Positions 598 to 59,975 of a DNA stretch of 64,000 bases are shown here, one piece after another. Where the stretch lies: NCBI GenBank assembly GCA_964187785.1, contig OZ076409.1:72666001-72730000 (forward strand). Reading direction: 5' to 3'. The notes under the pieces are model-generated. The model was given only the letters and a program-made list of their open reading frames with translations. It was not told the DNA's origin and did not search any database. Origin of the DNA: Amphiscolops sp. MND2022 (lineage: Eukaryota). Positions within the stretch are counted from its first letter, which is position 1. Every line of letters begins with the position of its first letter. The translations under genes were made by a program, and so were the position numbers.

Positions 598-656
598 GTG
601 GGCGGGGGTAATTCCCCAACAAAAAAATCGGCCGGCGGGTCGGGTCCTGCCGGCCG
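598..656 (+). other. 5'-terminal double hairpin (representative)
   Basis: GGGG-TAATT-CCCC, then CGGCCGGCGGG-TCGGGT-CCTGCCGGCCG (629-656); structural equivalents follow every junction. Confidence 0.85.
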
Positions 657-2587
657 TCCAAAATCAAAATCCTCCTAGTAGAAAACGGCATGTCAAACGA
701 GCTATTTTTTTATTTAACCATACGAATTTCACCATTTTTTGCATGCCGCCCTGAAATGGCCATACGAGACGAAGTTCCTGCTGACGTTTTGCGATGTAAA
801 TGTTTTATAAAAAGTTATGGCCGATTTGTCATTCACCTAGAAGGGTAAAATGAGGAAAATTTCAACAAAGTCGCTGATAACTCAAATTGTGTTAATTTTT
901 GGACTTTGACTGTGAAACAAGCTTGGAACCTTCATTTCGTGGCTGGGGCATTGGACTGAACACAAAAGATGTAAAGTTTTTACGTTTTTTGAAAATTCGA
1001 CATTTTTGAAATTTTTTTCACTACTATCAGTACCCCATATGTCAAAAACACCTAAGAAAAAAATTTTGATTTGCTTTAAATTGGAAACCTTGGTATCCAT
1101 GGTTTCTGTCGGAACCTACTCGCAGCCAAACACCCAACAGTTTGCATCCAATGTGAAAATAAAATTTTTTTCGGGGTCATAAGCGTTTCACAAGGATTTC
1201 TCAACTTAGTATTAATTTACAAAATGGTCATTTTGAACATAATATTTTCATCGAGGCTTGTCGGCTATAGCCTTAATGTTCTAGAACGGTCCCACTGGCA
1301 ACGTAGCAACCATTTATAGTAATATAAAAGGTTAAAAAAATTTTTTCACCCGGTCTTCAGTCATTTTTCAGACATTCGGAGCATAACTTAGAAAATTTTC
1401 GACCCAAATACCCATTTTTTGTCAGGTCGAAAATTAAAATTCAGCTATTGAAGCAAAATTATTTACTCTGACGTAACCAGTGGGGCCCATGATACTCAAA
1501 AACACCATTGGCACTGGTACCAATGGCTCCAATAACATATGAGTCGCGATAAGACGTTATTTTGAGCAATACGTCTCAATTGAGGTAAAGATCTCGCAAG
1601 CCAGCGATCACTGTGAAATGTGATTTCATCAAAAATTTACTCATTTTTGTCAATAACTATGTGCACAGAGTGCGTAGGGTGAGTTCCAGCACTATAATGA
1701 GGTTTTTGAAGGCATCGGGTTGCTCAAGGGGTGGTATGAGACATTTTTTTTCCTATATACTACTGTGTTTTCCAAAACTTGTAGCCCATTATCAGGAAAA
1801 AATAATTTGACAAAATACTTTCAACTACTTTATTCAAAGGTTACAAAATAGATGAACACTGTGGTTGATCAGAAACTTTCATCTCTTTCGTTTTCCGAAA
1901 TAATTCCCTTCGAATGTGTTACATTTGTAGCAGGAAAAAAAACTGAAACTAAAAAATACGCGATTTTGCTGAGATAGAATCACAATGGTTGCGCCTAAAA
2001 TCTCTTTAAATACTTCTAACGCGACCTTACGGACCCAAAATGATTGAAAATGCTATTCACAATGGTGACATGTGCTCTTTCAACAATCCTGGCTGGACAA
2101 GGTTTGCATATTTTTCAAGTACCTGTCAGCTGAATCTTGTGATAGCCTTTTCAGTTGGCCTTGTGTCAACTTGGGAAGGCTATCACATCAAAAAACTTTC
2201 AACAAAAATACTTTTTGTTTATTGGATATTGCTGTCGATACCTTTTTTTGTGATTCTATACTACCGTTAGTATATTCCATCAGGTCACCAGACGATTGTA
2301 TTCAGTATTTGATAAAAACTTATGAACTCAAAGTCTTTTTCATATGTTTTTTGTTCAAAAAAATTATCAAAAAAATTTATATTATAAACAATTGAGTCTT
2401 TAATTTTTTTATTTCCCAATTTTCCAGTGTTATTAGGCTCATCAACTTCCTACTGCAACATCCAGACATTAGTACAACGCCACAAAGTGTTGCGACGTCC
2501 ACCGTCTGTGGGCATGCCGAGGCATGCCCTTCGACGACGTATGCCAAAAATAGCGCCCTCCGCGGTCACTACCGCGGTAGCAGCTAG
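598..2587 (+). mobile_element. U1: family A cassette, 1990 bp
   Basis: Starts GTGGGCGGGGGTAATTCCCC; AT-rich body; H1 hairpin, core, CTAG end. Confidence 0.8.
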
Positions 2588-4789
2588 GTGGGCGGGGGTA
2601 ATTCCCCAACAAAAAAATCGGCCGGCGGGTCGGGTCCTGCCGGCCGTCCAAAATCAAAATCCTCCTAGTAGAAAACGGCCGGTCAAACGAGCTATTTTTT
2701 TATTTAACCGTTAGAATTTGGGTTTAGATTGCATGCGGCCATGAAATGGCCATACGAATGGAAGTTCCTGCTGACGTTTTGCGATTGAAACACTTTATAA
2801 AAAGTTATGGCCAATTTGTCATTCACCTAGAAGGGCAAAATGAGGAAAATTTTAACAAAGTCACTGATAACTCAAAATGTAATAATTTTTGGACTTTGAC
2901 AGTGAAACAAGCTTGGAACTGTCATTTCGTGGCTGTGGCATTGCACTGAACACAAAAGATGTAAAGTTTTCACATTTTTTGAAAATTCGACATTTTTGAA
3001 TTTTTTTTCACTACTATCAGTACACTATATGTCAAAAACGCCTCTGAAAAAAATTTTTATTTGCTTAAAATTAGAAACCTTGGTATCCATGGTTTCCGTC
3101 AGTACCTACTCGCTGCCAAACGCTCAACAGTTTGCATCCAATGTGAAAATATAATTTTTTTCGAGGTCATAGGTGTTTCACAAGGATTTCTCAACTTAGT
3201 ATCTATTTACAAATTGGTCATTTTGAACACATTATTTTCATCGAAGCGTGTCAGATACCACCCTAATGCTCACGAATGGGCCTACTGGCAACGTTGGAAC
3301 CATTTTTAGTAATAGAAAGTATTAAAAAAATATTTTCACCCGGTCTTCAGTCATTTTTCAGACATTCGGTACTTAACTTAGAAAAATTTCGCATCAAAAA
3401 CCCATATTTGGTAGGGTCGAAATTTGAAATTCAGTTTTTTATGCAAAATTATTAACTCTGACGTAACCAGTGGAGCCCATGATACTCAAAAACACGATTG
3501 GGACTGGTAGCAGTGGCTCCAATAACATATGAGCCGCGATAAGACGTTATTCAGAGCAAACGCTCTAAATCGAAGTAAACATCTCTGAAGCCTGGGATCA
3601 CAGTGAAATGTGATATCACCAAAAGTTTACTCTTTTTTGTCAATCACTATGTACACAGAGTGCGTAGGGTGAGTTTCAGGACTATAATGAGGTTTTTGAA
3701 GTAATCGCGCTGCTCAAGGGGTGGTATGAGACTATTTTTTCCCATATACTACTACATTTCCATAAATTTGCAGTCCATTGTCTTGGAAAGATAACTTCAC
3801 AAAAACAATTTTTCTACTCTATTCAGTTATTAGAATAAAGTTGAACACTGTGGGTGATCAGAAATGCTCAATTCTTTTGGTTTTTAAAAAAAATCCTTCG
3901 CATTCGTTACATTTGTGGAAGGAAGGTTATCAGTAGCTCCAAAAAAACGAAATTTAGCACGAACAGACATGCAACGATGCAAAGCAAAAACGTTTTTACA
4001 ACTTCCGACGTTATTATTTTACACAAGAAGTTCGAAAATATCATTCGCAATGCTGTCATTCGCTATATATACGATCGCGGTCAATTTACAAACATTTAGA
4101 TTTCATTGTTCTGCTTGAAAACCAATTTTTGTCAGGTCGAAATTTTAAATTTTGCCTGGGGAGCAATACCCTTCACGCTGAAGTAAACAGTGGGGCCCAA
4201 GTTACTCAAAAACAAGAAAGAGACTGCTACAATATGTCCTAATAACATATGGACCACGATAGTACGTTTTTCACACAAAAAACTCTCATCCGAAGTAAAT
4301 ATGTTGAAAGCTTTTAATCACCGTGAGAAGTGATTTCATCAAAAAATAACTCTTTTTTGTCAATCACTATTTACACAGAATTTGTAAAGTTAGTTTGAGT
4401 CAAGAAATGAGGCTTTACCGTAATATGGGTTGCTCAAGGTGTTATATAAGACAAAAACTTCCTCTTTTCTACTAGCTTCTTCAAATATTTCAACCCTTTG
4501 TCACAATAAGTTAATATTCAAAATCTCTTTGAAATGTATCTTTATGTTGGGGTGAAGTCTAAGAACAATAACTATGATCGAAGAATGCTAGTACTGGTGT
4601 TTGAACCATGTCCGGATGAACAAATCACAAAATCATCAAAAAATTGTTCCCTTTTTTGGTTATTTTGGCAGTACTAAAAATGTTAGCCGAGAAATAATTT
4701 TTTCGATGGCACCATTGGATTCCTCTCAAAAAGTTGGTTATATGACCTGTGTAATAACCCCGTATCTTTTCAATTTAAATATATTTAAA

Positions 4790-6140
4790 AAGCCAACTAT
4801 TTTGACCAAAATCCTAAAAATCATACCATTTCCTAAAAATTTTCAAATGCACCCCATTTGACGTATAAGATAAGCACAGAAAACTATCATATACCGATCA
4901 ACTCTACTCCTATTGTAGATTATTAGAATTTTGTTTAGAATGAATTTTGATGAATAATAAAAAAATTTTGAACCCTCCAAAAATGGGCCAAAATTACACG
5001 AAAAAATTGACCTTAAAATACCAAAATGTCAAAAAATCATCAAAACCCAGGCTTCTTGGGGTTCTATCAACTCCGCGTGGTCCACAGAGTATGCTAAAAC
5101 AGGTTTTACCCGTTTTTGAGCAATATGTGAAAAAGCCGACATTTTTGGGAAAGAAAAACATACCATTTCATGAAAAAATTCAAATGCACGTCATTTGCCG
5201 TATTAGAATAGCACAGAAAACTATCACATACCAATCAACTCTACTTTCTTTGCAGATGAACAGAATTTTGTTTAGAATAAATTTTACCGGATAATAAAAA
5301 AATTTGAATCCTTCAAAAATGGGCCAAAAATACACGAAAAAATGGACCTTAAAAATTTAAAATGTCAAAAAATCATCAAAACAACAGCTTCTTGGGGTTC
5401 TATCAACTCCACGAGGTCCACAGAGTATGCTAAAACAGGTTTTACCCGTTTTTGAGCAATATGTGAAAAAGCCGACATTTTTGGGAAAGAAAAACATACC
5501 ATTTCCTAAAAAAATTCTAATGCACGCCATTTGCCGTATGAAAATAGCACAGAAAACTATCACATACCAATCAACTCTACTTTCATTGCAGATGAACAGA
5601 ATTTTGTTTAGAATAAACTTTACCGGATAATAAAAAAAATTGATTCCTTCTAATATGGGCCAAAATTACACGAAAAAATGGACCTTAAAATTTTAAAATG
5701 TCAAAAAATCATCAAAACCACGGCTTCTTGGGGTTCTATCAACTCCACGTGGTCCACAGAGTATGCTTAACCCGGTTTTACCCATCTTTGAGCAAAATGT
5801 GAAAATACCGACATTTTTGGAAAAGAAAAACATGCCATTTTCTAATAAATTTCAAATGCACGCCATTTGCTGTATGAGAATAACACAGAAAGCTGTCACA
5901 TACCGATCAACTCTACTTCCATTGTAGATTATCAGAAGTTTGTTTAGAATAAATTTTGAAGGATAATAAAAAAATTTGAATCCATCAAAAATGGGCCAAA
6001 ATTACACGAAAAAATTGACCTTAAAATATCAAAATGTCAAAAAATCATCAAAACCACAATTTCTTGGCGTTCTATCAACTCCATATGATACCAAACCAGG
6101 TACTGCCAATCGTTTGAGTTATAATAAAAAAACGTCTTTT
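4790..6140 (+). repeat. About 4 copies of a 336-bp internal tandem repeat
   Basis: ATGGGCCAAAA anchor at 4983, 5319, 5655, 5991 (period 336); outer limits approximate. Confidence 0.9.
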
Positions 6141-6372
6141 TTGGCAAGAATTCCATACCATAAATAATAATCATGTTCCATATAAGAAGCGAATCATTTC
6201 AGATATATACCCTGTTCATTTTTTTAATATTACCGATTATTAATTTAATAGATGTTTTGAATGTGAGCTTCCTAAAAGGTTCAGGTGTGATGATACGTAA
6301 ATAGAACCTTAGTTTCATCGAAATCTCAATTGAATATGTCCAATCTTAACCATCAGATAACAAGAAACACTT

Positions 6373-6415
6373 AAGTACATTCCATCTCCCCATCGGGGGA
6401 GATGAGAATGTACTT
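6373..6415. other. H2 bulged hairpin (representative; in A-long and C cassettes)
   Basis: AAGTACATTC-CATCTCCCC-ATCG-GGGGAGATG-A-GAATGTACTT. Confidence 0.85.
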
Positions 6416-7347
6416 TCGAGAAGCCAAATACGTCCAACATTCAAACTTTTGTAACTTTGTATGTAACTCCTGAAACGAAGAAGGAATAAAATTGTTTCTG
6501 GTACATACATGAGTCTTTACTTCAGCTTCTATTTCTGCTGAACAAAACCATTCGACTCTTTTGCCGGAGTTAAGATCGATTGTATTACCCAGTGAACAAA
6601 GGCATGACTGAAAACGTTTACTACTTTGTTCATAATTTTCTGGCCTTCCGAAATGATGAAACGTCCACATAACTAAGATAGCAAGTGAATGACTGCGAAA
6701 TGCACCTTATTAGATGAGGTAAATAACGTGTAAAACTCTCCTTTATCCTAACATGAGGTTGAGTAATGATCATTTGAGAATAGTTTGATATGTGAATACA
6801 ATAGTATAAAACAAGTACATTTTATATGAATAACGCCGTGGAAAGCGTTCAGAAAGGACAGTAGGCTTGTTTGGAACATGTATGTGTGGTGTCCCTTGGT
6901 GGCGTTCGCTTAGTGTATATGTCGAGGGGTATTCGAGTTGTTATGATAGAATTTACACACAAGTCTTTTGTTTTTTGGTTTTTTTAAAATGTCGTTAAGT
7001 ACCTGCATTCTATCCCCTTCTCAGAGATGACGTGAAGTTACGTTTGCTAAATAAATGTCATCGAAAGATCACACTCCCGACGAAATTAACTATCTTAACA
7101 CGTGTTTAGAATTTTAAATAAACAACCGTATAAGATTTTTATATTTCATTGAGTTTGATGAGGTCTTTTGTTCTTCTCACTACTATTTCAACCAATACAC
7201 ATATCCGTTACCATATCACATGTCTCCATTAGTACAACGCCACATAGCGTTCCGACGCCCACAGTCTGTGGGCATGCCGAGGCATGCCCTTCGACGACGT
7301 ATGGCAAATGGAGCCATGCCCGCCGTCTTTACGGCGGTAGCGGCTAG

Positions 7348-9333
7348 GTGGGCGGGGGTAATTCCCCAACAAAAATTACGGCCGGCGGGTTGGGTCCTGC
7401 CGGACGTTCAAATAGCGCGAAGCATCTAGTAGAAAACAAGGAGTCCTGAAACAGCGATTTTAAAATTGAACCGTTAGAATTTGGTTTTAGATTGCATGCG
7501 GCCCTAAAATCCCCATACGAATGGAAGTTCCTGCTGGCGTTAAGCGATTGAAATAATATATAAAAAGTTATGGCCCATTTTTGGGTCACCGAGAAGGTCA
7601 AAACGAAGAAAATTTTAACTAAGTTGCTGATAACTCAAAATGTGTTAATTTTTGGACTTTGACTGTGAAACAAGCTTGGAACCTTCATTTCGTGGCTGTG
7701 GCATTGCACTGAACACAAAAGATGTAAAGTTTTCACATTTTTTGAAAATTCGACATTTTTGATTTTTTTTTCACTACTATCAGTACACTATATGTCAAAA
7801 ACACCTCTGAAAAATTTTTTTATTTGCCTAAATTTAGAAACCTCGGTATCCATGGTTTCCGTCAGTGCCTACTCGCTGCCAAACACTCAACAGTTTGCAT
7901 CCAATGTGAAAATAAAAATTTTTTCGAGGTCTTAGGTGTTTCACAAGGATTACTCAACTTAGTATCAATTTACAAATTGGTCATTTTGAACACATTATTT
8001 TCATCGAAGCGTGTCATATACCGCCCTAATGCTCACGAACGGGCCTACTGGCAACGTTGGAACCATTTATAGTAATAAAAAGTTTTAAAAATTTTTTTCA
8101 CCCCGTCTTCAGTCATTTTACACACTTTCGGTACTTAACTTAGAAAAATTTCAACCAAAAACCCATTTTTTGTCAAGTCGAAAATTCAAATTCAGCTTTT
8201 TAAGCAAAATAAATAAATCTGACATAACCAGTGGAGCCCATGAAACTCAAAACCACGATTGAGACTGGTATCAATGGCTCCAATAACATATGAGTCGCGA
8301 TAAGACGTTATTTTGAGCAAAACATCTCAATTGAGGTAAACATCTCGCAAGCCAGGGATCACTGTGAAATGTGATTTCATCAAAATTTTACTCATTTTTG
8401 TAAATCACTATGTGCACAGAATGCGTAGGGTGCGTTTCAGCACTATAATGAGGTTTTTGAAGGCATCGAGTTGCTCAAAGGATGGTATGAGACATTTTTG
8501 TCCCATATACTACTGTATTTTCCAAAATTTTTAGCCCAATATCTGGAAATACAAACTTGACAAAATACTGTCAACTACTTTATTCAAAGGTTACAATATA
8601 GATGAACACTGTGGTTGATCAGAAACTTTCATCTCTTTCGTTTTCCGAAATATTTCCCTTCGCATGTGTTACATTTGTAGCAGAAAAAAAAATCGAAACT
8701 GAAAAATACGCTATTTTGCTAAAATGGAATCGCAATGATTGTGCCTAAAAACTTTTTAAATACTTCTAACGCAACTGTACAGACCCAAAATGATTGAAAA
8801 TGCCATTCACAATGCTGACATGTGCTCTTTCTACGATCCTAACTGGACAAGTTTTGCATATTTTTCAAGTACCTGTTAACTGAATCTCGTGATAGCCTTT
8901 TAAGTTGGCCTTGTGTCAACTTGGGAAGGCTATCACATCAAAAAATTTTCAACAAAAATACCTTTTGTTTATTGGAAATGACAGTCGATATATAATTTCG
9001 TGATTCTATACTACCGTTAGTACCTTCCATTAAGTCACCTGACGATTGCATTCAGTCTTTGATAAATACCTATGAACTCGAAGTCATATTTATAATTTTT
9101 GTGCTAAAAATAAACATCAAAATTATCCAATTTATTTAAAATTGAGTCTTTAGCGTTTTTGTTTTACTTTTTCTACTGTTATTAGGCCCATCAACTTCCT
9201 ACAGCCACGCTCTCTGTCATACCGTACAACGCCACATAGTGTTGCGACGTGCACAGTCTGTGGGCATGCCGAGGCATGCCCTTCGACGACGTATGCCGAA
9301 TACCGCGGGCCTACGCCCGCGCTCCCCGGCTAG
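7348..9333 (+). mobile_element. U3: family A cassette, 1986 bp
   Basis: Collinear with U1, same terminal structures. Confidence 0.8.
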
Positions 9334-11319
9334 GTGGGCGGGGGTAATTCCCCAACAAAAAAATCGGCCGGCGGGTTGGGTCCTGCCGGACGTCAAATAG
9401 TGTGAAACATCCAGTAGGAAACGGCGACATAAATCAGCGATTTTAAAATTTAACCGTTAGAATTCGGACTTGGAGTGCATGCGGCCCCAAAATGCCCATA
9501 CGAATCGAAGTTCCTGCTGACGTTAAGCGATAAAAACATTTTATAAAAAGTTATGGCCCATTTTACGTTCACCTATAAGGGTAAAATGAGGAAAATTTTT
9601 ACAAAGTCGCTGATAACTCAAAATACATTAATTTTTGGACTTTGACTGTGAAACAAGCTTAGAACCTTCATTTCGTGGCTGTGGCATTGCACTGAACACA
9701 AAAGATGTAAAGTATTTACATTTTTTGGAAATTCGACGTTTTTGATTTTTTTTCACTACTATCAGTACACTATATGTCAAAAACACCTCTGAAAAAAATT
9801 ATTATTTGCTTAAAATTGGAAACCTTGGTATCCATGGTTTCTGTCGGAACCTACTCGCTGCCAAACACCCAACAGTTTGCATCCAATGTGAAATTAAAAT
9901 TTTTTTCGAGGTCTTAGGTGTTTCACAAGGATTTCTCAACTTAGTTTCAATTTACAAATTGGTCATATTGAACACAATATTTTCATCGAAGCTTGTCAGA
10001 TACCGCCCTAATGCTCACTAATGGGCCTACTCGCAACGTTGGAACCGTTTATAGTAATAGAAAGTTTAAAAAAAATATTTTCACCCGGTCTTCAGTCATT
10101 TTTCAGTCATTCGGAACTTAACTTAGAAAAATTTCGACCAAAATACCCATTTTTTGTCAGGTCGAAAAATCAAATTCAGATTTTTAAGCAAAATTATTTA
10201 CTCTGACGTAACTAGTGGGCCCCATGATACTCAAAAACACGATTGGGACCGGTACCAAGGGCTCCAATTTCATATGAGCCGCGATAAGACGTTATTTTGA
10301 GCAACACGTCTCAATAGAGGTAAACATCTCGCAAGCCTGGGGTCACAGTGAAAAGTAATTTCATCAAGAATTTACTCATTTTTGTCAATCACTATGTGCA
10401 CAGAGTGCGTAGGGTGCGTTTCAGCACTTTAATGAGGTTTTTGAAGGCATCGGTCTGCTCAAGGGGTGGTATGAGACATTTTTTTCCTGTATACTACTGT
10501 ATTTTCCAAAACTTTTAGCCAATTATCTGGAAAAACTAACTTGACAAAATACTTTCAATTACTTTATTCAAAGGTTACAATATAGATGAACTCTGTGGTT
10601 GATCAGAAACTCTCAACTATATTGTTTTCCGGAAAAAATCACTTCGCATCTGTTACATTTGTAGCATGAAAAAAAGCAGAATCTAAAAAATACGCAATTT
10701 TGTTAAAATAGAATCGCGTTGATTGTGCCTAAAAAGTTAATAAACACGTCTGACGCCACCATACAGACCCAAAATGATTGAACATGTCAATCAGAATGCT
10801 GACATGTGTTCTATCTACGATCATGGTTGGACAATTTTTGCATTATTTTCAAGTACCTGTTAACTGAATCTTGTGATAGCCTTTTAAGTTGGCCTTGTGT
10901 CAACTTTGGAAGGCTATCACATCAAAAAATTATCAACAAAAATGCTTTTTGTTTATAGAATGTTGTTTTCGATAAACATTTTTGCGATTCTAAGCTACCG
11001 TTAGTACCTTCCATGAGGTCAGCTAACGATAGCATGCAGTCTCTGATAAAAAAATATGAACTCAATTACATTTTTCTAAAATTTTTCTCAGAGAAAAGTA
11101 CAAATAAATAAAAACAATATAAAATTCTAATCTCAAACAACTATAAATTGTTTGTTTTTCACCGTAATCAGTTTACGACCCATCACCCTATGTCACGGCA
11201 CCGTCATTAGTACAACGCCACATAGTGTTGCGACGTGCACAGTCTGTGGGCATGCCGAGGCATGCCCTTCGACGACGTATGCCGAATACCGCGGGCCTAC
11301 GCCCGCGCTCCCCGGCTAG
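9334..11319 (+). mobile_element. U4: family A cassette, 1986 bp
   Basis: Collinear with U1, more diverged in its 3' third. Confidence 0.8.
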
Positions 11320-14300: not shown

Positions 14301-16090
14301 ACCAATCAACTCTACTTTCATTGCAGATGAACAGAATTTTGTTTAGAATAAATTTTACCGGATAATAAAAAAATTAGATTCCTTCTAAAATGGGCCAAAA
14401 TTACACGAAAAAAAGGACCTTAAAATTTTAAAATGTCAAAAAATCATCAAAACCACGGCTTCTTGGGGTTCTATCAACTCCACGTGGTCCACAGAGTATG
14501 CTTTATAGAGAGAATAATACCCGGTTTTACCCATCTTTGAGCAAAATGTGAAAATACCGACATTTTTGGAAAAGAAAAAAATACCATTTTCTAATAAATT
14601 TCAAATGCACGCCATTTGCTGTATGAGAATAACACAGAAAGCTGTCACATACCGATCAACTCTACTTCCATTGTAGATTATCAGAAGTTTGTTTAGAATA
14701 AATTTTGATGGTTAATAAAAATAATTGAATCCATCAAAAATGGGCCAAAATTACACGAAAAAATTGACCTTAAAATATCAAAATGGCAAAAAATCATCAA
14801 AACCACAGTTTCTTGGCGTTCTATCAACTCCATATGATACCAAACCAGGTACTGCCAATCGTTTGAGTTATAATAAAAAAACGTCTTTTTTGGCAAGAAT
14901 TCCATACCATAAATAATGTTCCATAGAAGAAGCGAATCATTTCAGATATATACCCTGTTCATTTTTTTAATATTACCGATTATTAATTTAATAGATGTTT
15001 TGAATGTGAGCTTCCTAAAAGGTTCAGGTGTGATGTTACGTAAATAGAACCTTAGTTTCATCGAAATCTCAATTGAATATGTCCAATCCTAACCATCAGA
15101 TAACAAGAAACACTTAAGTACATTCCATCTCCCCATCGGGGGAGATGAGAATGTACTTTCGAGAAGCCAAATACGTCCAACATTCAAACTTTTGTAACTT
15201 TGTATGTAACTCCTGAAACGAAGAAGGAATAAAATTGTTTCTGGTACATACATGAGTCTTTACTTCAGCTTCTATTTCTGCTGAACAAAACCATTCGACT
15301 CTTTTGCCGGAGTTAAGATCGATTGTATTACCCAGTGAACAAAGGCATGACTGAAAACGTTTACTACTTTGTTCATAATTTTCCGGCCTTCCGAAATGAT
15401 GAAACGTCCACATAACTAAGATAGCAAGTGAATGACTGCGAAATGCACCTTATTAGATGAGGTAAATAACGTGTAAAACTCTCCTTTATCCTAACATGAG
15501 GTTGAGTAATGATCATTTGAGAATAGTTTGATATGTGAATACAATAGTATAAAACAAGTACATTTTATATGAATAACGCCGTGGAAAGCGTTCAGAAAGG
15601 ACAGTAGGCTTGTTTGGAACATGTATGTGTGGTGTCCCTTGGTGGCGTTCGCTTAGTGTATATGTCGAGGGGTATTCGAGTTGTTATGATAGAATTTACA
15701 CACAAGTCTTTTGTTTTTTGGTTTTTTTAAAATGTCGTTAAGTACCTGCATTCTATCCCCTTCTCAGAGATGACGTGAAGTTACGTTTGCTAAATAAATG
15801 TCATCGAAAGATCACACTCCCGACGAAATTAACTATCTTACCACGTGTTTAGAATTTTAAATAAACAACCGTATAAGATTATTATATTTCATTGAGTTTG
15901 ATGAAGTCTTTTGTTCTTCTCACTACTATTTCAACCAATACACATATCCGTTACCATATCACATGTCTCCATTAGTACAACGCCACATAGCGTTCCGACG
16001 CCCAAAGTCTGTGGGCATGCCGAGGCATGCCCTTCGACGACGTATGGCAAATGGAGCCATGCCCGCCGTCTTTACGGCGGTAGCGGCTAG
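11320..16090 (+). mobile_element. U5: family A-long cassette, 4771 bp (U1/U2 mosaic)
   Basis: First ~600 bp match U1, remainder nearly identical to U2; H2 hairpin ~15116-15158. Confidence 0.8.
13525..14890 (+). repeat. About 4 copies of the ~336-bp internal tandem repeat
   Basis: Same repeat as 4790-6140. Confidence 0.85.
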
Positions 16091-48841: not shown

Positions 48842-50835
48842 GTGCGGGGGGGTAACCCCAACTTTTTTCTTGGAGGAATCGGGTAGGGTCCTGATTCCGA
48901 GTTCAGTGCCGCCAGCTATCGTTAAAAACCCATACCTTTTAAACCCGATCTCGGGAACTAACCACGCCCCTTCTTTAATTTTTTGGCCCCCACTCACTTT
49001 TTGAGAGTAGATCGCCCCCCACTGGGTTCCAAGTTGGGCAAAAATGGAGGTCATGGGTAACGGGGACCGTTAAGGGGTAACTCAGGGGGTAAAATTTATT
49101 TTTTGCGTCATATCTTTTCCCCCCGTGGATTTAGCTCTTCCGGTCAGCAGACAAAACCTCATGTACGTGATACGGGGCCTCCGTAGGTCCAAACAAAATT
49201 TTTCTATCATGCACCGTTACGGACTTGCCCCCCCGGCCCAACCGTTATTTTGCCGGAAATTGCACTTTTTGACCGGGAAGGAGTCGTCTGAGCACGGAGT
49301 CGTTTGGTAATGTTTTGTAGTGCATCTGGAGACGTGTTGGGGGACATGTAGTTTGCCGGCCCCAGTTTACCCCCCGGACGGGAAATGACCGTTATGTGAG
49401 TTTTAAAATTACCCCCCTTCAATTTTCCCCGTTATTTCCGGTGTGAAGGAGTGGGAGTAGCGCGTCGGGTGCCATATATCAAAAGTAGGTTTAGACAAGG
49501 ACCAACCGGAAACATGTGGTTTGGGACCCCCTGACCCAACCCGTTAGCCGTTATAAGGGTGATCGCCTCCTTTTTTTACACTCAAAACCGGAAAACGGGT
49601 ATTGAGGGGTAAATATCTCGTGAACGCGTGGAGCAATCGTGTCCATCACTACTACAAGGTTTCATACCCATGATATGGTGCCTTCAGGGGGGCAAACAGA
49701 TTACCGCTATCTATCACCGTTACCGACTTGGCCCCCCAGCCCAACCGCTACGTGACCGGAAATTGCACTTTTTGAGCCCAAAGGGTCGATCCTAGCCGGG
49801 CAACGTTAGGTAACATATTGTAGTACTCATTGAGACGAGTTGGGGGATATAGTTTCAGTCACCCCCCGTTACCCCTTGAGACCGGAAATGACCGTTATGT
49901 GAGTAGAATTGCAATTTTTATACCTTTTGAAGGGCAATTAGGTGCGGAAGGAATGGTAATAGGTGCTTGGACACTATATGATGTAATGGAGGTCGTGACG
50001 AGAGCATTCGGAAATAACCGTTATGTTGACCCCAAAGTCCCCCTGTTACCGTTAACGACCGGAAATGGCCAAATTTTGTGTTCATGGGGTACAAATGTTT
50101 AGTATTTTATGGATAAAAGTACCTGGAAGATGTTTTAAAGGCCTCCAGAAGTGAACATAGTCATGAAACCTTGTGGGGGGTAACGGTATATAGCACCGTA
50201 AGTCCAAACCGTTGGTCACAGAATAGGTTTTTTGGTTTCAAAATGCCTTTAGGCGTAGTTTTGTGGGTTGAATCGTCATAATATCAACTAATACGGACTT
50301 TTTTGGGAAATAAAATTTTTTCACATTAGTTTCAGGGACCTACAATGCTTCAGTCAACATAACCGTAACATTTTGATAGCCTTTCAAGTTGACCTGGTGT
50401 CAACTTGGAAGGGCTATCCTTCTAAAATCGTTAATCAAGAGTGTTTTTGGATAGGTATATGTTGCATTAGTACCAATTACAGCTTCATCAACAGTTTGCC
50501 AACGGCAAAACAATGTCGTGATAATTCCGTTATAAGAATAAAAGTTAACAAATTGTTTACAAAGTTGATTTTTCCCATTCAAAATGTGTCCAAATGCCAC
50601 CAAATTGATTAAAATAATAAATGGTGATGACTAAAACTAACTAACATTGAAAAAGAAGCTCAACATTTTTAATAGGTCTCATTATGGAAGCTGAAACCTC
50701 ACATTTTAGTTCAATTAACGTCAACGCCACATACTTTACATCAACGCCCACCGTCTGTGGGCATGCCGAGGCATGCCCTTCGACGACGTATAACAAACAC
50801 CTTTAATATCTACACCCACCCGCGGTAGCAGCTAG
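48842..50835 (+). mobile_element. U21: family B cassette, 1994 bp
   Basis: Nearly identical to U14 except the terminal ~40 nt; last cassette with the 3' core. Confidence 0.8.
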
Positions 50836-51907
50836 GTGGAATTGGGTTATGACAAACTCATTTTTCGAGGTTGGGGTAGGGCCCACAACCGAGCCCTAAT
50901 TTCATTTGCTACTGTACCGAAACCCCCCCTGAAAAATCACGATCTTTTATATGAGCCCTACGATTTCGTTGAAACTTTGCATGAGGCAAGAAAAAAAAAT
51001 TCTAAGAATTTTTTCTTGCTGACACTTTTTCGAAAAAACGGTCCTTAATGGTTTTTTTGGCACTTTTTTGTTGAAATTTAGTGCATTTTGTGCATTATTC
51101 GTGAGTAACGTGAATAAAAATGAATGTGCTCAGAATTGGACCATATTATATGCGAATACTCAGCACAGTTATGCGATTTCATTTTCATGTCGCGGCACGT
51201 CGCTCCGACTCTCGAGAGTTAGTTATGACAGGATGAAAAAATACAAATGAGTGCCAAAAAAACGAGGTAGGAATTTTTTTTTTTAAATTATGTTTTCGAA
51301 CAAAAATGTGAATAATTTTTTTTCACATGACAAAAAAAAGTACGAAAAAAAGTACGAAAACAAGTACGAGAAAAAGTACAAAAAAAATTGGATAATTTTT
51401 TTTGAAAAAAAAAACAATTTTTTGGAATATTTTTTTCACCGTACAGGACCTAATTAGTACCGTAGAATTCATTTTATGCATTGCCCAGTTGCCCTTCTAT
51501 TGTTTTGTAGCGCTGACAACTTATTTGAGGTTTGTGTAGCAAAGTATGTTCAGCAAAGTTTAAAGGGAGGAACCATATAGTTTATTTTAAGTCAACTCTA
51601 TTATATTTCACACTGCTGTTAACCAAAATTAACTCTTGCGGTCGTCTCATGGTCCCGGAGTGGTCCATGAGACAGACGCAATGGCAAAACACAAAGGTCC
51701 AAGTGATGATTAGTCGTAGTGTCACATGTGATCCTGCATGTGACGGCTGTATATAGGTTGGAGCTGTTTTTCTTTTTCGAAACTTTCGCATTGGCAATAT
51801 GTCTTTTAATGTCTTAGTTGCGATGTTATTACCTTCATCGAGTACGTTCTCCTAACACTCTTAACCCAACTCGCTAGACTAATGGCAGTGGACGGACACG
51901 AGTCTAG
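50836..51907 (+). mobile_element. U22: family D cassette, 1072 bp (single copy)
   Basis: 5' GGTTGGGGTAGGGCCCACAACC hairpin, conserved 5' block, H4 hairpin 51638-51679, ends AGTCTAG; no core. Confidence 0.7.
51333..51380 (+). repeat. 12-bp minisatellite (AAAAAAAGTACG) x4
   Basis: Four slightly degenerate copies. Confidence 0.85.
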
Positions 51908-52977
51908 GTGGTCAAGGGGGATGCCCATCAGAAAATATTGCGAGGCCGGGGAGGGTCCCGAGAGCCGAGCACATTCTATCAATTCCTACCTTCAGGATTG
52001 CGAAGTATTTTAACCGATCTCGAAATTCACCCGTAGGATTTGTCTGAAACTTTGCATGTGGCTTTATCTCAAAAATTTAAGAATTTTTTTCTGCTGACGT
52101 TTTTCCAGAAAAATTCATTTTGAAGGGTTTTTTTGCGTTTTTTTGGTTTTTTTCATCTTTTTTCATCTTTGATTAATCAATGACCGAATCAAAGGCCATT
52201 TTCACCATGAAGGAAAGCCCGTAGCGGCAAAGTGCACTTTTATGAAAATCATCAACGGTCAACGGTCTTTCGAACGGTCCGAAAAAATTTCCCCCCGGGG
52301 GAAACCAAAGTGCCGAAAAGTGCCAAAATTAATTTTTTGACTGAATCACTTTGATCAAATTGATGATTTGAGCAGCCGGAACGGTCCGCACGGTCTCGGA
52401 CAATAAGGTCAAAAATTGTCAGCATCCAATGGGGGTTCCAAAAATGTAATTCGTTCACCTGTAGGAGACATCAGAAAAAAGTTGATTTTTTGGGGTATAT
52501 GTCATTATGAGTGATTGGATGAGAAATAATTGTATCACTTTCAGTTGGATATGATGCAGCACAGGAAGCAGCTGCAGCAAACTAGAAACTGGTTATGGGG
52601 CTGGGGTTTACCCTCTGTATCGAGCAAAATAGCCCTAGGGCATAAGTTGTGCCAAAAAATGCCTCAAACTGATGATTTGGTTATTGCAAATCGATCAGCA
52701 AAATTTATTGTCACCGGTGTTCCGAGAGTTGCGCAGCATCTCGCAGGAACAACGGTGCTTGTTTAGAAAGCAAAAAACCACAAAATCCCTTGAGTTAAGT
52801 TGACGGCAGTCACCATAGACATTCACTCGTCAGGGTGATGATATTTATCGTTCAATCCCAGAATAACTTACAAAAAATTGCTAGCCTCAATATTTCTTTT
52901 TCATACTCCATTAGCAAAGGTTGCGCTGTTAAGTTTAGGCCTTTTACTAGCAGTGCTCTAAATCGCTCCATCGCTAG
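51908..52977 (+). mobile_element. U23: family E cassette, 1070 bp
   Basis: Starts GTGGTCAAGGGGGATGCCC; H3 hairpin 52710-52757; ends CCATCGCTAG. Confidence 0.75.
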
Positions 52978-54048
52978 GTGGTCAAGGGGGATGCCCATCA
53001 GAAAATATTGCGAGGCCGGGGAGGGTCCCGAGAGCCGAGCACATTCTATCAATTCCTACCTTCAGGATTGCGAAGTATTTTAACCGATCTCGAAATTCAC
53101 CCGTAGGATTTGTCTGAAACTTTGCATGTGGCTTTATCTCAAAAATTTAAGAATTTTTTTCTGCTGACGTTTTTCCAGGAAAATTCATTTTGTAGGGTTT
53201 TTTTGCGTTTTTTTGGTTTTTTTCATCTTTTTTCATCTTTGATTAATCAATGACCGAATCAAAGGCCATTTTCACCATGAAGGAAAGCCCGTAGCGGCAA
53301 AGTGCACTTTTATGAAAATCATCAACGGTCAACGGTCTTTCGAACGGTCCGAAAAAATTTCCCCCCGGGGGAAACCAAAGTGCCGAAAAGTGCCAAAATT
53401 ATTTTTTTGACTGAATCACTTTGATCAAATTGATGATTTGAGCAGCCGGAACGGTCCGCACGGTCTCGGACAATAAGGTCAAAAATTGTCAGCATCCAAT
53501 GGGGGTTCCAAAAATGTAATTCGTTCACCTGTAGGAGACATCAGAAAAAAGTTGATTTTTTGGGGTATATGTCATTATGAGTGATTGGATGAGAAATCAT
53601 TGCATCACGTTGAGTTGCATTTGATGCAGCACACGAAGCAGCTGCAGCGAACTTGAAACTGCTTAGGGGGGTAGGGTTTACTATCTGTAACAAGCAAAAT
53701 ATCCCTTGGGCAAAAGGTATGCCAAAAAGTGCCTCAAAGTGCTAATTAAGTTGTTGCAAATCGGCTAGCAAAATTTATTGTCACCGGTGTTCCGAGAGTT
53801 GCGCAGCATCTCGCAGGAACAACGGTGCTTGTTTCGAACGCAAAACCCAACATACCTCTTTGGTGACGTGACGGAGGTCACCATTGGCCTTTTTCGGCAG
53901 TGTGATGATATTATTATTGTTGAATTGTGAACAACTTACACAAAAGATTTAGCGTGGGATATTTGTTTGTTTCATACTTCAGTAACAAACTTTCAACCGT
54001 TTCGTTTAGGCCTCTACCTAGCAGTGCTCTAAATCGCTCCATCGCTAG
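52978..54048 (+). mobile_element. U24: family E cassette, 1071 bp
   Basis: First ~620 bp almost identical to U23, then diverged; H3 hairpin 53780-53827. Confidence 0.75.
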
Positions 54049-55080
54049 GTGGTCCGGGGAAGTACCCCACAGGAAAATGCGAGGCGCGGGGAGGGTCCTG
54101 CTAGCCGAGCCTAAAAAATAGGATTCTAAAAACTAATTATATGCCAGGGGGGTACAGGAACACGATCTCGGAATTGAACCGTAGGATTTTGCTGAAATTT
54201 TGCATGCAGCCATAAATGGAAATTCTAAGAATTTTTTCCTGCTGGCACTTTTTTGAGAAAACGCAATTTCGGAAGTTATGAGCAAATGATCGGTTTTTTC
54301 ACCTATTTTCGGTACTTTTTCGCTGCAATATCTGCAGCATGTGCACACAATTGGCTGATACTTTACATGCGAGGCATAAATGATGTTAGGTGTTTGCATG
54401 TCAAAAATCATTAGGCTGGTGATACTAGGCTGGGAGATAGAATCGAAAGTGATACCGGGAAATGGTGAAATCTCCGGTCATCGCGTCATAAATTCCGAAC
54501 TTTTGTATAGATGGTCTTTACTTAAGTGGTAGCAGTACAGTTGATGTGTTTTTAACATCACGTGATGAGGATAAAAAATAAAAAATAAAAAAGTTCTACA
54601 TAAGTTCTACCAGAATTCGTAAAATGGAGAATTTTTGCCAAAAAATTTTTTTCCGCGTTTTTAATGAAATAACCTACCAGGAATTCAAAAATCACGTTAT
54701 TTATTGTGCCAGCGGTGTGAAAATGGGTCATAAGTTCAACATTCACCAAATTTCTATACCAGTTTTACCAAACATTGAGATAAAACTGTTCAGTATACAT
54801 TAAACTCAATATGTGACTTTAATTTTTTGGAATCATTGTCACCGGTGTTCCGAGGGATGCACAGCAGCTCGAAGGAACAACGGTGACCCGAAGGGGGGCT
54901 GTAGGTACCTTTTAAATCGTACGGCAGTCACTGTATAGTTTTCTTCGTCAAGGTACTACATGTGATTGTGACATGTAAGATGTTCACGAAAGGAGCCCAA
55001 AATGAACAAGAATTACATGAATTAACATCCGTAGAGTACCGAACGCGCCCTCTGGTAATTGGTACCTTTCCCTCCACTGG
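54049..55080 (+). mobile_element. U25: family F cassette, 1032 bp
   Basis: Double 5' hairpin, conserved 5' block, H3 variant 54838-54887, ends CTCCACTGG. Confidence 0.7.
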
Positions 55081-58000
55081 GTGGTCCGGGGCTTAATTTG
55101 CCCCACAATAGTCATTGCGAGGCCTGGGGAGGGTCCCGGAGCCGAGCGCTATATACAAAATGCATCCATGGTAGACCGGGAGAAAAACAAGCGATTTTCC
55201 AATCTAACCGTTAGATTTCCATGAAACTTTGCACACATACATAAAATCAAATTCTAAGAACTTTTTTCCCCTGACGTATCATGATTGAAACATTTGTTGA
55301 AAAGTTATGTGCAAATGATCGTGTTTTTTGGCCATTTTTCGCATTTTTCACGTAGTAGCTCCACACTTTACGCTATGCATTTGGCCCATTTTTTGCGTGC
55401 GAGGCATAAATGATGTCATGCTTACACATGCCAAAAATTATTTCTTAATTCGCAACAGGAGTGGAGATATGGCGGATAATATTGGCGGAAAATTTAACGA
55501 TTACGAAACTTTGCACACATTTGGCCAACATTTGTTTCAAAAATGACAAAAATCAAAAAGTCCGCGGATTGCGTTGAAACTTGGCACACAGGTAGTAAAA
55601 CAAATTTTAAGAACTTTTTTCTTCTGACGTTTTTCCGAAAAATTGCATCTTCAACCTATATTTGCAATGTTTCGGGTTTTTTGATTCAACGTGATTTATC
55701 ACTCACATATTCAGAGTCCATTTTCAGCATGAAGCAACGCAGATACCGCCAATGTGCACATTTTGCAAAATCATCAACGGCCAACGGTCTACCGAACGGT
55801 CCAAAAAAATTTTCCCCTCGGGCCCAATCAAAGTGGCCAAAAGTGCCAAATGGTTTTTTCCAACAGTATCACCATTACAAAATTGATGATTTGACCAGGA
55901 GCAACGGTCCGCACGGTCTCGGACCATAAGGTGAAAAAGTGTCAGTGAGTTATGGTGACGACCAAAATGACATCAGTTGACCTCTAAGAGGCCTCTGGAA
56001 AAATTTGATTTTTTTGAGTCACGGTCCGAGTTGATCTGTTACGTTGAATGAACATTTCATAATCATGTTACTCATAACCGAGTACAGATAGCACCGTGGG
56101 TCATCTTTATGAAAATGAACATTGGGCAGCGGTCTAACGACTGAGTGCAAAAATAATACCTTAGTTGCCATAGGGAAGGAAAAAAATTTTCAGAAGTGTT
56201 GTTTTCAATTTTTCATGTCGACTCGCAGTTACAAAATTGTGATTTTCTCTTCAGCAACGGTCCGAACGGTCTGGTACCATAAGATAAAAATTTGTCAGTG
56301 TGACATGGTGGCGCCCAAAAACACATCAGAACACTGGTAGGAAGCCTCTGAAAGAGTTTCGAATTTTCACGTGGGTCCGAGAGTTATAGTGTCACATCGT
56401 AACTACATTTCGGGTATGCATATCTCCTCACAGAGTACAGATAGCATCATGGGTCACCTTTTCGAAAAAGAACGTGGGCCACTGGTCTATCGATTGGTTA
56501 GAAAAAGTTTTCAGTCACTGCTGCACGGCGTGAATAATATGCCAATATGGGGTATTTAGCATTTTTTTGCACGACTCGGACCTACAAAAGCCTATTTCTG
56601 CTGCACCAACGGTTTGTACGGTCTTCGACCATAAGGTCAAAAAGTGTCAGTGTGCTATGGTGACGCCCAAAAACCCACCAGTACACTTGTAGAGTGCTTC
56701 CGAAAAATTTTGGATTTTTTAGGTGAGTCCGAGAGTTATAGAGAGTTATGTTGTCACATCGAAACTACATTTCGGGAATGTATATCTCCTGACAGAGTAC
56801 AGATACCAACATGGGTCATCTCTTGGAAAGTGAACGTCGGCCACTGGCCTACCAAATGGTGATAAAAAGTTTTCACCAGTTGCTACAGGGAGTGATAAAA
56901 GTGCTTACATGGGTTACATAGCATTTTTTCAGGCGACTCGGACTTACAAAAAGCTCATTTGCTCGCCAACAACGGTCTCTACGGTCTCCACTCAATGGGT
57001 CGAAAATTTTTTGTGGGCTATGGTGACGCTCAAAAACCCATCAGTTTACTTGTGGGATGATTCTGTAAAAATTTCGTGTTTTCGTGCAGACTATGTTACA
57101 TATTACATTGGGAACCGTGTTTTTTTCTCTCCAAAATCATGTTTTTGAGTGCCCAAAAACTGTTTTTAAAGCCCAGTAGCCATCTAAAATGTACTTTTGC
57201 ATAACACGGGGTGTGAATAACGTGAAAAAAGTGTTCACTGTGGATTTGGAGTTATGTCGAAAAAATCAGCTGCCATTAGACGTTACATTACAGAAAATCG
57301 TACCTTACATATCGATTCATGGGTTGAGTCAAAAACAGCTAAAGTTCTTTTTCAGTCAATCAAGACTCTTTTTTGTTCACAACCAAGTGTACTGCTGACG
57401 TCGAACCTATTTTGACCTTCCACAATGGTTATAGTGCAATTTTGAGGTACAAAAGCCTCGTTGACAAACAAAATTCCAAGATGAAATTGCTTTCCAAATC
57501 ATTTTTTGAAGTATAGGAACGCCATTTTCAGCCGACAACCATCAAATATCCACTTCTCTTGGCCCAGTGGCTTGTGAAAAATACAACTGGGCATTGACAA
57601 GGCACAAGGACCTTACTTCGAGTAGTCATGTGCCACAATATTCGCTAATCGATAGCAAATTTTGTTGAAAATTGATACAACATCACATTTTTGGTGGACT
57701 CGAAATGACAAATTGGAGCTTCTGCAGCAACTATAGGCTTTTAGTGCAACTCAGTGGCACTGTTACTTAGGAAAATACGGTCTACAGTAGTTTCATGCTA
57801 ATTTTTCAGAATCTGAGGTACATAAAAATATCATACTGAATAGACATATGACTTAAACATTGGAATTTTTCCGGTTGTGTCACCACTTTTTTGGTATCAG
57901 CGGTCCTACCAACACCGTTTTTGGTCTAAAACTAAACCCGAGGCTCAACCAAGATATATATGAGACTTGTAAAATCAATGCAAGGACTTTCGACATGTCA

Positions 58001-59975
58001 AAAGTACTGATAAGAAGAGAAACTTCTCAAAAAATCATGGTATGTGTCATATTCCATTCCACGTTTTTTAATCGGTGCTTGTCGGTTATGGTATTAACGC
58101 TGAACAACGACCTCACTGACAACAAACAACTCGTTTATAGTCATTAAAAGTGTTTATAATACAACCATGCTTGGTCTGGACACATTTTTTATCCCATTCG
58201 TTCGTAACAATAAAAATTTTTTCCCCAATAACCCAATTTTTGTCAGGTCGAAAACTGATTTCTCGTGTTTTGAACAACATTATTGTGTTTGACGTAACCT
58301 GTGGCCTCCAAAATACTGAAAAAGAGATATATGACTGGTATCAAATGCTTTAGTGACATGTGAGCCACGATAACACGTTTTGCAAAGAAAAATTCAACTT
58401 TCAACTGAAAATTTCGAAGACACATTTTCACAATAGAAACAGAATATATAACAATCTAACCTAATTCCCGTCAATTACTATTAATATAGTATCATTGTTG
58501 CGAATATGAGGTCCATACAGGGGTGTATGGGAAAAAAATGGCGCATAAAGCATTGTGTAACACAAAGTTTACCAAAGTACTAAGAATTTGTCACGGTTTC
58601 TTTGCACTCTAACTCAAAAATTTGATGGTGTAAACATCAATGAGCAGTTCAATTTAGTACGGTTTATCAACTGTGTATCTTTTTCAAAGTGCACAATCTT
58701 TCTGTTGTTCCAAACTCCTTTGTTAGGGCTGAAAAGTGTCATATGTTTTACAACGCAATGTTCATTAAAAGATACATTAGCAAAGACCGAATCAACTTCA
58801 CAGCAGGTAATCAAATTCTCAATACGTTTTTCAGTACTTGGATTTCGCAGACTATATAGATTTCATTTGCATTTTTATAAAGACTTTATAACTGAATCTT
58901 GCATTTTTATAAAGAGTTTATAAAAAAATTTCGTGATAGCCTTCCAAGTTGGCCTTCGGCCAACTTGGAAGGCTAACACTACAAACACCAAAAACCAGGA
59001 GTTCCTCTACTCTCAAAATAGGCGGGGAAACTTTCATTGAACTTTCCTTTCTCACATTAATTGATAATTTCAGGACATGAGCATTTCTATTCGCTATACG
59101 ATGACCACCATTGTGTTCAATAAATAAATCTTTCCTTGTGACGCTTAAAAATACCATAAAAACTAACTTGAAACATATGAATTGTATGTGGAACGTACAT
59201 TTATCTAACCAATGAGTGGCTACCCCTATTGGTTCCACGAAATCCTCTACCCCTCCACCAGACAGTACGTTACATCATACGTTGATGTCTTCCACAGTGG
59301 TCACATAGGGCAAAAAAAAGGAAATGGAGTTGGAGTGTATGTATTTCTAATGCATTTAAGTCAGCCACTTGTGATAGGAAAGGTTCAAAACTACGGAATA
59401 AATCTATCCTAGCTGAAAATTGTTTCGGCAAACACATGGCACACAAAAATACTTCAAAAATTTCCAGCAGTCAATTCCTTCCACAAAAATTTTTCTGTCC
59501 GATTGTGAATAATTTCAATATTTGGAATTCGCCAGTCCCGTCATCTTCGCATCTCACCTCGGTCACAACAGAGCTTTCTTTTTTTCAATTCTCTCCACCC
59601 ATTTCCACATAACGAGGCAGTTACGTTCACTATTTGGAGTGTTATTGGAGATTATAAGGCATTAATCACTGTAATGAACAATTACTTCTAATGTTGAAAC
59701 TCTTCCAGTTTTCTTTGTAAATTGTCAAAGTAGAACATCGCTTTTATTCAGCAGGAACGTCGCGTTGGCTTGCAGATTGATGGATAAGTGACAAGTAGCA
59801 TTGTAAGGCACCACGTGTCGTGGAGATGCCAAATATGAAATACGTTGAACACAACAAAGACTACTTTTGTCAACAGAACGGAAAACGAAAATTTTATTGT
59901 TGAAAATTCTTTTCTTTCTATACACATTTTCCTCGCTTCTCGGCAGTGTAACTGCAACAACCTCGCCTCCACTGG
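55081..59975 (+). mobile_element. U26: family G cassette, 4895 bp
   Basis: Double 5' hairpin, ~355-bp internal repeats, A-related module near 58240, H1 hairpin 58933-58979, ends CTCCACTGG. Confidence 0.7.
55880..57080 (+). repeat. Diverged ~355-bp internal tandem repeats (4 anchors)
   Basis: CAACGGTCCG-ACGGTCT...TGTCAGTG anchor near 55903, 56256, 56608, 56970. Confidence 0.75.

Follow-up and report, generated by a model that had tools for sequence, protein, structure and literature searches.

How a chromosome comes to carry an unbroken chain of mobile elements, and what keeps the lengths of those elements so even, are the questions raised by a 64,000-nucleotide stretch of the genome of Amphiscolops sp. 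MND2022 (contig OZ076409.1; G000:C1:72,666,001-72,730,000 within the 1.07-Gb assembly; hereafter the window). The window is an uninterrupted chain of units, all on the + strand, joined at CT[AG]G^GTG[GC], where the caret marks the joint. The units, or passengers, are non-autonomous, gene-less Helitron-like elements. It is quite probable that they belong to a divergent Helitron-like family that likely inserts at the end-to-end junctions of its own copies, with passenger length likely held by selection on internal spacing. Self-targeting taken by itself, as read from the genome sequence, is more probable still, and the proposed self-targeting Helitron lineage that builds mixed megabase arrays is a stronger result than the length classes.

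Cutting the window at this junction gives 27 + junctions and 26 whole units (U01 to U26), with element limits of the form GTG...CTRG and with CTAG or CTGG at every junction. The chain extends beyond the window both ways, with 241 units of 24 families in 464 kb. No open reading frame (ORF) longer than 225 amino acids (aa) was found among the array units scanned in these 464 kb, hidden coding was ruled out by substitutions lacking a 3-bp period and by stops in all frames, and an Rfam scan gave no match at the gathering threshold. The junction region folds at z -3.2. The features of the window are as follows, with whole units delimited by junction cutting.

1-597, +, 3' part of an A unit cut by the window start (self-alignment, junction)
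594-601, +, junction CTAG^GTGG, a right end followed by the next left end; boundary fixed by solo copies
598-680, +, left terminal sequence: GTG[GC], short G/C hairpin, second stem with GGGT(A/C)GGGTCC motif
598-2587, +, U01, family A, 1990 bp
2140-2185, +, internal hairpin of about 45 bp, type I, within U01
2470-2587, +, right terminal sequence: GGCATGCCGAGGCATGCC palindrome, variable hairpin, CTAG end
2588-7347, +, U02, A-long, 4760 bp, with type II hairpin
4817-6083, +, 336-bp module repeated 3.8 times inside U02
7348-11319, +, U03 and U04, family A, 1986 and 1986 bp
11320-16090, +, U05, A-long, 4771 bp
16091-18077, +, U06, family A, 1987 bp
18078-24039, +, U07 to U09, family B, 1996, 1992 and 1974 bp
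24040-25317, +, U10, 1278 bp, distant member of the 1.27-kb class
about 25012-25050, +, type II hairpin of U10
25318-30078, +, U11, A-long, 4761 bp
30079-34062, +, U12 and U13, family A, 1989 and 1995 bp
34063-36055, +, U14, family B, 1993 bp
36056-42005, +, U15 to U17, family A, 1982, 1990 and 1978 bp
42006-44080, +, U18, family B, 2075 bp, with an exact 81-bp left-end duplication (also self-alignment)
44081-46871, +, U19, 2791 bp, with 503-bp modules
46872-50835, +, U20 and U21, family B, 1970 and 1994 bp
50836-51907, +, U22, family D, 1072 bp
51908-54048, +, U23 and U24, family E, 1070 and 1071 bp
about 53782-53827, +, type III hairpin of a family E unit
54049-55080, +, U25, family F, 1032 bp
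55081-59975, +, U26, family G, 4895 bp, with modules of about 353-362 bp
59976-64000, +, G-group unit cut by the window end, 4737 bp in the assembly

One common right end is followed by GTG[GC] in 1261 of 1296 copies (97%), by A or T in 32 and by GTG[AT] in 3, a count in which one end motif stands for all and from which CTAG+G+non-T and CTAGGT+non-G continuations were left out. The 30 non-G continuations that were read comprise 21 AT, 8 TT and 1 TA. Solo copies occupy CTNG^DT sites and show no target duplication, and no empty allele was seen; since the flank is unlike the copy's own CTAG end in 5 of 8 solo copies, CTNG is the target rather than a duplication. In 11 of 14 cases, among them the beginning of the big C1 array at 70.455 Mb, the host sequence just ahead of a first head is CTNG. 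Sites of the form CTNG^DT are common, so this motif by itself does not account for the 97% use of resident junctions, and we infer that the transposase captures the resident left end. Heads with a non-A base at -2 were found 11 times, all at array coordinates, in a search too strict for B heads.

Resemblance between neighbours bears on how the arrays grow. Identity is 0.879 for adjacent A pairs and 0.882 for random ones, and none of 40 adjacent pairs reaches 99%. Of 63 A units, 2 have their closest copy (median 98.7%) next to them and 58 have it at a distance of over five units or in a different sampled region; closest copies frequently lie at remote sites or on other chromosomes. No multi-unit block is duplicated at 97% or above, the four matches longer than 3 kb being single A-long units or one 3.4-kb stretch. 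Neighbours are thus no more alike than random pairs, so the arrays likely grow by separate insertions at existing junctions, and the rarity of adjacent closest copies argues against concatemers and unequal crossing-over.

Candidate sources of mobility are present as larger units with the same junctions. Fourteen complete units of 12,045-23,047 bp carry RepHel ORFs; of 22 RepHel loci examined, these 14 have both junctions and 6 have one within the DNA fetched. In a 20,217-bp unit on C3, a 2207-aa protein (Helitron_like_N and PIF1) is followed by a GIY-YIG ORF and then by a 439-aa ORF (Pfam). GIY-YIG is usually present, fused to RepHel or adjacent to it (Pfam), and the HUH motifs are intact in the array Reps. 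The Rep region of the C3 unit has at least 122 matches in the genome, 70 of them with open frames of at least 2100 aa (hand count); some copies are identical on different chromosomes, and 35 matches, all on the + strand, fall within C1:70.5-76.5 Mb. The third ORF, found at 18 of 19 autonomous loci tested, is predicted to encode an OB-fold protein that binds single-stranded DNA (ssDNA). It is OB-fold-like by language-model features (atlas 0.90-0.93), and a model from an alignment of 10, of middling predicted local distance difference test score (pLDDT 57; a single-sequence fold at pLDDT 33 was unusable), has MCM10 OB as its best VIA match (Z 9.2, root mean square deviation 3.3, 115 residues), followed by RPA, CST and POT1. 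An accessory 219-aa ORF has no atlas match. The autonomous unit around L204 (L264/L263) carries a duplicated ORF of about 220 aa, before and after RepHel, with no Pfam, PHROG or atlas match.

Database relatives of the Rep number 354 representatives at E<=0.001, and phmmer of the Rep region against the PDB gave no match at E<=1. On the metagenome contig L223, which may derive from this species or a near relative, a RepHel ORF is preceded by the left-end stem and GGGTAGGGTCC motif of the array elements. Two other recombinase types were rejected as the source of the arrays: tyrosine recombinases of the Crypton/DIRS kind, for which DUF3504 and Phage_integrase matches exist and four fetched regions lack array junctions (one loose match lies inside a coding region), and IS607/Fanzor, with no TnpB match. 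Separately, the 1055-aa ORF of L042 (G000:C3:2,082,272-2,085,436) repeats a 331-aa DUF3504 unit, tyrosine-recombinase-like and Crypton-type, in three copies, and the 17-kb contig G000:C1368 (L055, L056), possibly a contaminant, holds reverse-transcriptase-like and phage-integrase ORFs that look DIRS-like by eye.

Each passenger class matches the 5' leader of its own autonomous parent. The parent of A and A-long is a 16.5-kb unit around L209 (A 5' 1548 bp, 80%). The 5' part of B matches the 20,217-bp C3 unit (G000:C3:2492823-2513040(-)), to whose 5' end the first 1576 bp of the 2.79-kb family (U19) are 95% identical. The 23-kb unit around L204 matches the 5' 590 bp of family E and most of the first 3.5 kb of family G, and the 5' 650 bp of family F match a 13.6-kb unit around L205 (62%; 93% for a sister family). 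The leader of the 3.07-kb passengers comes from L202 (96%) and that of the 1.27-kb clade from L201/L207 and kin; no parent of family D was found among the autonomous units compared.

Helraiser circles, as described in the part of the published account available, join CTAG to the 5' end and serve as donors (PMC5876387). By analogy with Helraiser biochemistry, RepHel would nick at CTRG^GTG, one strand would be peeled into a circle with a CTAG^GTG junction, and the circle would be joined into a chromosomal site resembling that junction. The best target would be a resident left end, which would offer both the nick site and transposase-binding hairpins, so a single ectopic CTNG^DT landing would seed an array growing in one orientation. 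The circular intermediate proposed in an earlier note on this DNA is likely; its joined ends would have the same sequence as the genomic junctions, and two contig runs with 0.07-0.08 share yielded nothing on circles. Each passenger would combine its parent's 5' leader with a hairpin-bearing 3' segment.

The largest array runs from G000:C1:70,454,838 to about 76.5 Mb (about 6 Mb, single orientation, 35 RepHel matches). Smaller ones lie at C1 3.5, 24.0, 29.5 and 38.1 Mb, C2 57.8 and 102-103.9 Mb (reaching the contig end), C3 2.4-3.9, C4 77.2, C5 22.7, C6 15.6, C7 65.2 and C10 36.4 Mb. Orientation flips at G000:C2 ~102.6-102.77 Mb, C3 ~2.56-2.72 Mb, C1 ~23.978 Mb and L194 suggest inversions within arrays. 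One solo A-type copy of 1977 bp (L174, G000:C2:16,308,011-16,309,990) sits at a CTAG^AT site inside tRNA-like sequence, which scores weakly as a tRNA and under relaxed settings only; L164 has a similar flank. At least 6 of the 30 array-end or solo copies read belong to a single A subfamily (like U17), which suggests that targeting strictness differs among families.

Among the units themselves, left ends are duplicated, a head inserted in a head, at window positions 42006-42167 and at L195, L196 and L199. Fusarium Helitrons reportedly have multiple 5' termini that resemble these duplicated ends. Families F17, F18 and F9/F10 and L267 (~4,750-6,070) are chimeras with the front of one family and the back of another, right ends are freely swapped among passenger families, and the 2.18-kb family (F9/F10 type, e.g. 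G000:C1:72,730,709) lacks the usual GGGTAGGGTCC left-end stem while keeping the GTGG start at junctions.

The unit lengths that the earlier note had described as quantised at about 1.05, 1.99 and 4.8 kb were all reproduced: nine A units of 1978-1995 bp, seven B units of 1970-1996 bp (U18 without its duplication), D, E, E and F units of 1072, 1070, 1071 and 1032 bp, A-long units of 4760, 4771 and 4761 bp, a G unit of 4895 bp and singletons of 1278 and 2791 bp. A wider sample of 1.11 Mb holds 485 small units of 44 families and about 14 lineages, distributed over 1032-1072 bp (12 units), 1260-1314 (208), 1381-1421 (27), 1970-2016 (172), 2178-2195 (11), 2375-2380 (5), 2791-2800 (5), 3063-3074 (5), 4716-4771 (30) and 4894-4953 (5). 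Five of the 485 fall outside all classes: a gap-containing unit of 1121 bp, chimeras of 1678 and twice 1778 bp, and U18. The lengths are therefore discrete rather than continuous, and tight within families, but form about nine or ten classes instead of three; the lineages missing from the window (1.39, 2.18, 2.38 and 3.07 kb) miss the three classes first described.

Within lineages, length is likely under constraint. In the 1.27-kb clade (30 representatives, 63% mean identity) the standard deviation (SD) of total length is 13.4, against 19.4 expected with independent segments (p=0.001), and the 336-bp module is neither gained nor lost in any of 26 A-long copies. Across lineages, four pairs among 14 lineages agree within 1% in length where about 1.1 would be expected (p 0.027-0.053 under three nulls), at a threshold picked after the data were seen. 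The coincidence is not significant at 2% (p 0.15-0.27) or 3% (p 0.08-0.21), and at 1% it weakens when two dependent lineages are dropped (p 0.04-0.08) or G is taken as 4897 (p 0.09-0.14). No common length period was found among lineages at 80-250 bp or about 10.5 bp (p 0.28-0.61). The sharing of a length class by unrelated lineages beyond chance is thus borderline, and true quantisation across lineages is unproven.

The interiors of the passengers have an organisation of their own. In 39 of 44 passenger families a hairpin of about 45 bp, which comes in three sequence types, is situated 240-1090 bp from the 3' end; three further families have similar hairpins. Type I occurs in A, B, G and the 1.39- and 2.79-kb families. 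Half-motif matches aside, none of the three types was found in the 14 complete autonomous units, and at 9 of 19 autonomous loci the DNA between RepHel and the OB gene holds a hairpin of another kind. Hairpin II has 292 strand matches genome-wide, and the 100 listed all fall within known C1 array intervals. As a guess, the passenger hairpin might be a second-strand priming site or a GIY-YIG substrate. An AA/TT periodicity peak at 9.75-10.75 bp is present in 37 of 44 families and exceeds the 95th percentile of controls in 29. Lag peaks were seen in six of 14 regions tested, non-alignable families among them: at 167, 334 and 503 bp in B, the 2.79-kb family and the A-long module, at 167 bp in the 1.39-kb class, and at 176-177 and 353-364 bp in the G and 2.38-kb families. 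Several families have subrepeats of 167-182 bp. The 167- and 176-177-bp lags are nucleosome-sized.

Indels are scarce relative to substitutions in the A, B and A-long cores (ratio 0.013-0.020, mostly homopolymer slips; 25 random pairs per region, the pairs being non-independent), compared with 0.046-0.112 for the 3' parts and 0.043 for canonical Helitron copies (0.072 for pairs above 99%, hand-summed), a neutral yardstick that is mostly coding DNA. The A and B cores are nearly without non-homopolymer indels at 7-10% divergence, and A/T tracts are conserved (8% variable against 23%). Taken together, indel-poor cores, 10-bp A/T phasing and 167-182-bp subrepeats favour a chromatin or bending constraint. 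The internal modules, once suggested to be inert stuffer, look rather like phased chromatin or bent-DNA units, and the earlier note's alternative of a chromatin or circularisation constraint fits better than packaging. The interior would be phased A/T DNA, with nucleosome-sized subrepeats in several families, and as it would tolerate substitutions better than indels, length would drift little. Length matches between lineages would stem partly from shared 3' modules and partly from chance, and a weak size optimum is possible.

Several points weigh against this combined reading, in addition to the restrictions of the right-end count and the coding bias of the yardstick. Junction targeting was read from the genome alone, with no circle, transcript or transposition observed, and selective loss of ectopic copies could inflate it. 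The first-head flank is not CTNG in 3 of 14 cases, a G-excluding search found three more such host flanks, and 2 of 22 RepHel loci have no junction in the DNA fetched. Adjacent units are somewhat more alike than random ones in the 1.27-kb class (0.767 vs 0.706) and in B (0.904 vs 0.891), which suggests local bursts in these classes. Length compensation, tested on mutually non-independent families, is significant in the 1.27-kb clade only (A, p=0.051, and the 1.39-kb class, p=0.049, are marginal; B, p=0.77); indels are not scarce in the 1.27-kb core (0.046); the distribution of indel sizes lacks a clear 10-11-bp step and has only a small bump at 8-9 bp; and 10-bp substitution phasing is significant in A only, one of four groups.

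The alternative that survives best is selection on the size of the whole circle, through nucleosome count or ease of circularisation or second-strand synthesis, so that passengers with different parents would arrive at similar lengths of about 1.05, 2.0 and 4.8 kb. The four near-equal pairs, the segment compensation of the 1.27-kb clade and the constant module number of A-long copies speak for it; the post hoc 1% threshold, the loss of significance at wider thresholds or with G at 4897, the lack of a common period and the 450 bp that A and B share at their 3' ends speak against it, and we regard it as possible at best. The same tentative standing applies to a joint reading in which a lineage outside HLE1 and HLE2 acts, together with its own GIY-YIG nuclease and ssDNA-binding protein, as a site-specific integrase for its own junction and builds integron-like megabase arrays, and in which the passengers are nucleosome-phased minicircle replicons that have an internal hairpin of their own and are under such circle-size selection, converging on 1.05, 2.0 and 4.8 kb; the size-selection half of it is doubtful.

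A little less probable is descent alone, with families young or homogenised and no selection on spacing. Most of the 1.27-kb class forms a single clade, as does G; B, the 2.0-kb family F12 and the 2.79-kb family make up another, and the length coincidence across lineages is weak. Against this stand a length SD of about 1% despite 63% mean identity, the near absence of non-homopolymer indels from the A and B cores and the conserved A/T tracts. A and B, called non-alignable before, indeed do not align end to end, but their last ~450 bp are collinear at 61% in a sensitive alignment, with similar end hairpins, so the description holds for about three quarters of their length. D, E and F have only about 200-260 bp of 5' end in common, and E and F also a hairpin. 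Since the 5' parts of A and B, E and F, and A-long and G come from different autonomous parents, equal size is not plain end-to-end descent, and the common descent that the earlier note would have taken as a refutation does not hold outright.

That the arrays are satellite DNA, formed by rolling-circle concatemers or unequal crossing-over rather than by targeted insertion, is improbable and largely refuted for the window: plant and bat tandem Helitron arrays have been read as concatemers (PMC5876387, as far as the accessible part of that source goes) and same-class runs occur here, but units of 24 families alternate within 464 kb, neighbouring units are not each other's nearest kin, closest copies are often distant or on other chromosomes and no multi-unit block is duplicated at 97% or above. 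The weakest proposal, the earlier note's capsid-packaged satellites of a circular ssDNA helper virus with sizes set by the shell, would suit the rolling-circle-like unit ends, three near-equal lineage pairs from different parents and a hairpin confined to passengers (39 of 44 families against none of 14 autonomous units, half-motifs aside), but is very improbable, because the helpers are chromosomal Helitron-like transposons of 12-23 kb with a twofold size spread, the search for Rep or capsid genes with the same termini found RepHel and no capsid gene, the third ORF, which is conserved, has a predicted OB-fold and fold matches that include no capsid, 17 other ORFs have no Pfam capsid family, nor is there a PHROG capsid match among other ORFs (a few non-conserved ORFs remaining without identification), there are at least nine size classes, the passenger-to-parent size ratio varies from about 1/21 to 1/3.5 (passengers 1.0-4.9 kb), and the right-end motif has no match in IMG/VR.

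Helitrons are known for near-random insertion at A^T or T^T. If self-targeting is true, a eukaryotic HUH transposase homing to its own junction would amount to a natural integrase that is site-specific and leaves no duplication, with a defined landing pad, 1-23 kb of cargo and 70 long open copies, and it would show how transposons can give rise to megabase tandem arrays with neither concatemers nor unequal crossing-over. Passenger families of fixed length, phased and hairpin-bearing, would make requirements in cis beyond the ends testable, among them second-strand priming and the setting of circle size by chromatin.

In a Rep tree of 56 sequences and 520 columns (FastTree, unrooted; 34 database matches without the motif pattern were dropped and every second remaining one was used), the array proteins and their database relatives split from the HLE1 and HLE2 of this genome with a support of 0.996. 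Like HLE1 elements such as Helraiser, the array elements combine an HUH Rep with PIF1, a 3' hairpin and a CTRR end, make no target duplication, have an OB gene for ssDNA binding, here a predicted one, downstream of RepHel and give rise to non-autonomous derivatives with shared ends (PMC11417382 and PMC5876387, in the portions available); the hairpin is present in folded A and B junctions and weak in E. Unlike HLE1, they start with GTG rather than TC, insert at CTNG^DT (flanks CTNG^AT/TT/GT) and at their own junction rather than between A and T, carry GIY-YIG and fall in a separate Rep clade. A profile of this clade matches Helraiser in the helicase only (E 1.7e-07), and the HLE1 of this genome matches Helraiser at 2.5e-153. 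With HLE2 (Helentron/Helitron2) they share RepHel and, in some members, OTU. DUF6570 was found in none of seven full-length array RepHels against seven of seven HLE2 controls, no short terminal inverted repeats of the HLE2 kind were seen by eye at the GTG/CTRG ends, and the target is not T^T. GIY-YIG was captured by one HLE2 family (PMC11417382, accessible portion), and passengers with internal tandem modules resemble oyster Helentron derivatives (PMC7492417, likewise).

Tandem Helitron arrays, Helitron self-insertions and a target-specific third clade in Paramecium are already published, going by the portions of those reports at hand. That clade, compared here through its published description alone, resembles the array elements in lying outside HLE1 and HLE2, in very long ORFs and satellite-rich passengers, and in a deduced sequence-specific target used in fixed orientation; it differs in CCAA ends and telomeric-repeat targets, and GIY does not occur in the paper's text, as far as available (PMC13085455). 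The literature, searched outside Repbase, Dfam and paper supplements, yielded no account of a GIY-YIG- and OB-bearing GTG...CTRG lineage that fills its own junctions. The unclassified Helitron-like clusters of HELIANO may include this lineage.

We know of no megabase self-arrays in the IS91 family. Its members are bacterial and small, with a transposase that lacks a helicase (PMC5876387, in part). They share with the array elements an HUH transposase, the absence of target duplication and a tetranucleotide target resembling their own cleavage site; these targets are CTTG, CTCG and GTCC in IS91 elements, as given in the available part of PMC13181058, and CTAG, CTTG, CTCG, CTGG and GTCC here. 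Adeno-associated virus (AAV) differs in being a capsid virus with a superfamily 3 helicase, aimed at a host site rather than at the element's own junction. Its Rep at AAVS1 nevertheless provides an analogy for junction targeting, in that an HUH-helicase protein is directed to a chromosomal site like its own origin (PMC2900306, as far as the portion at hand describes it).

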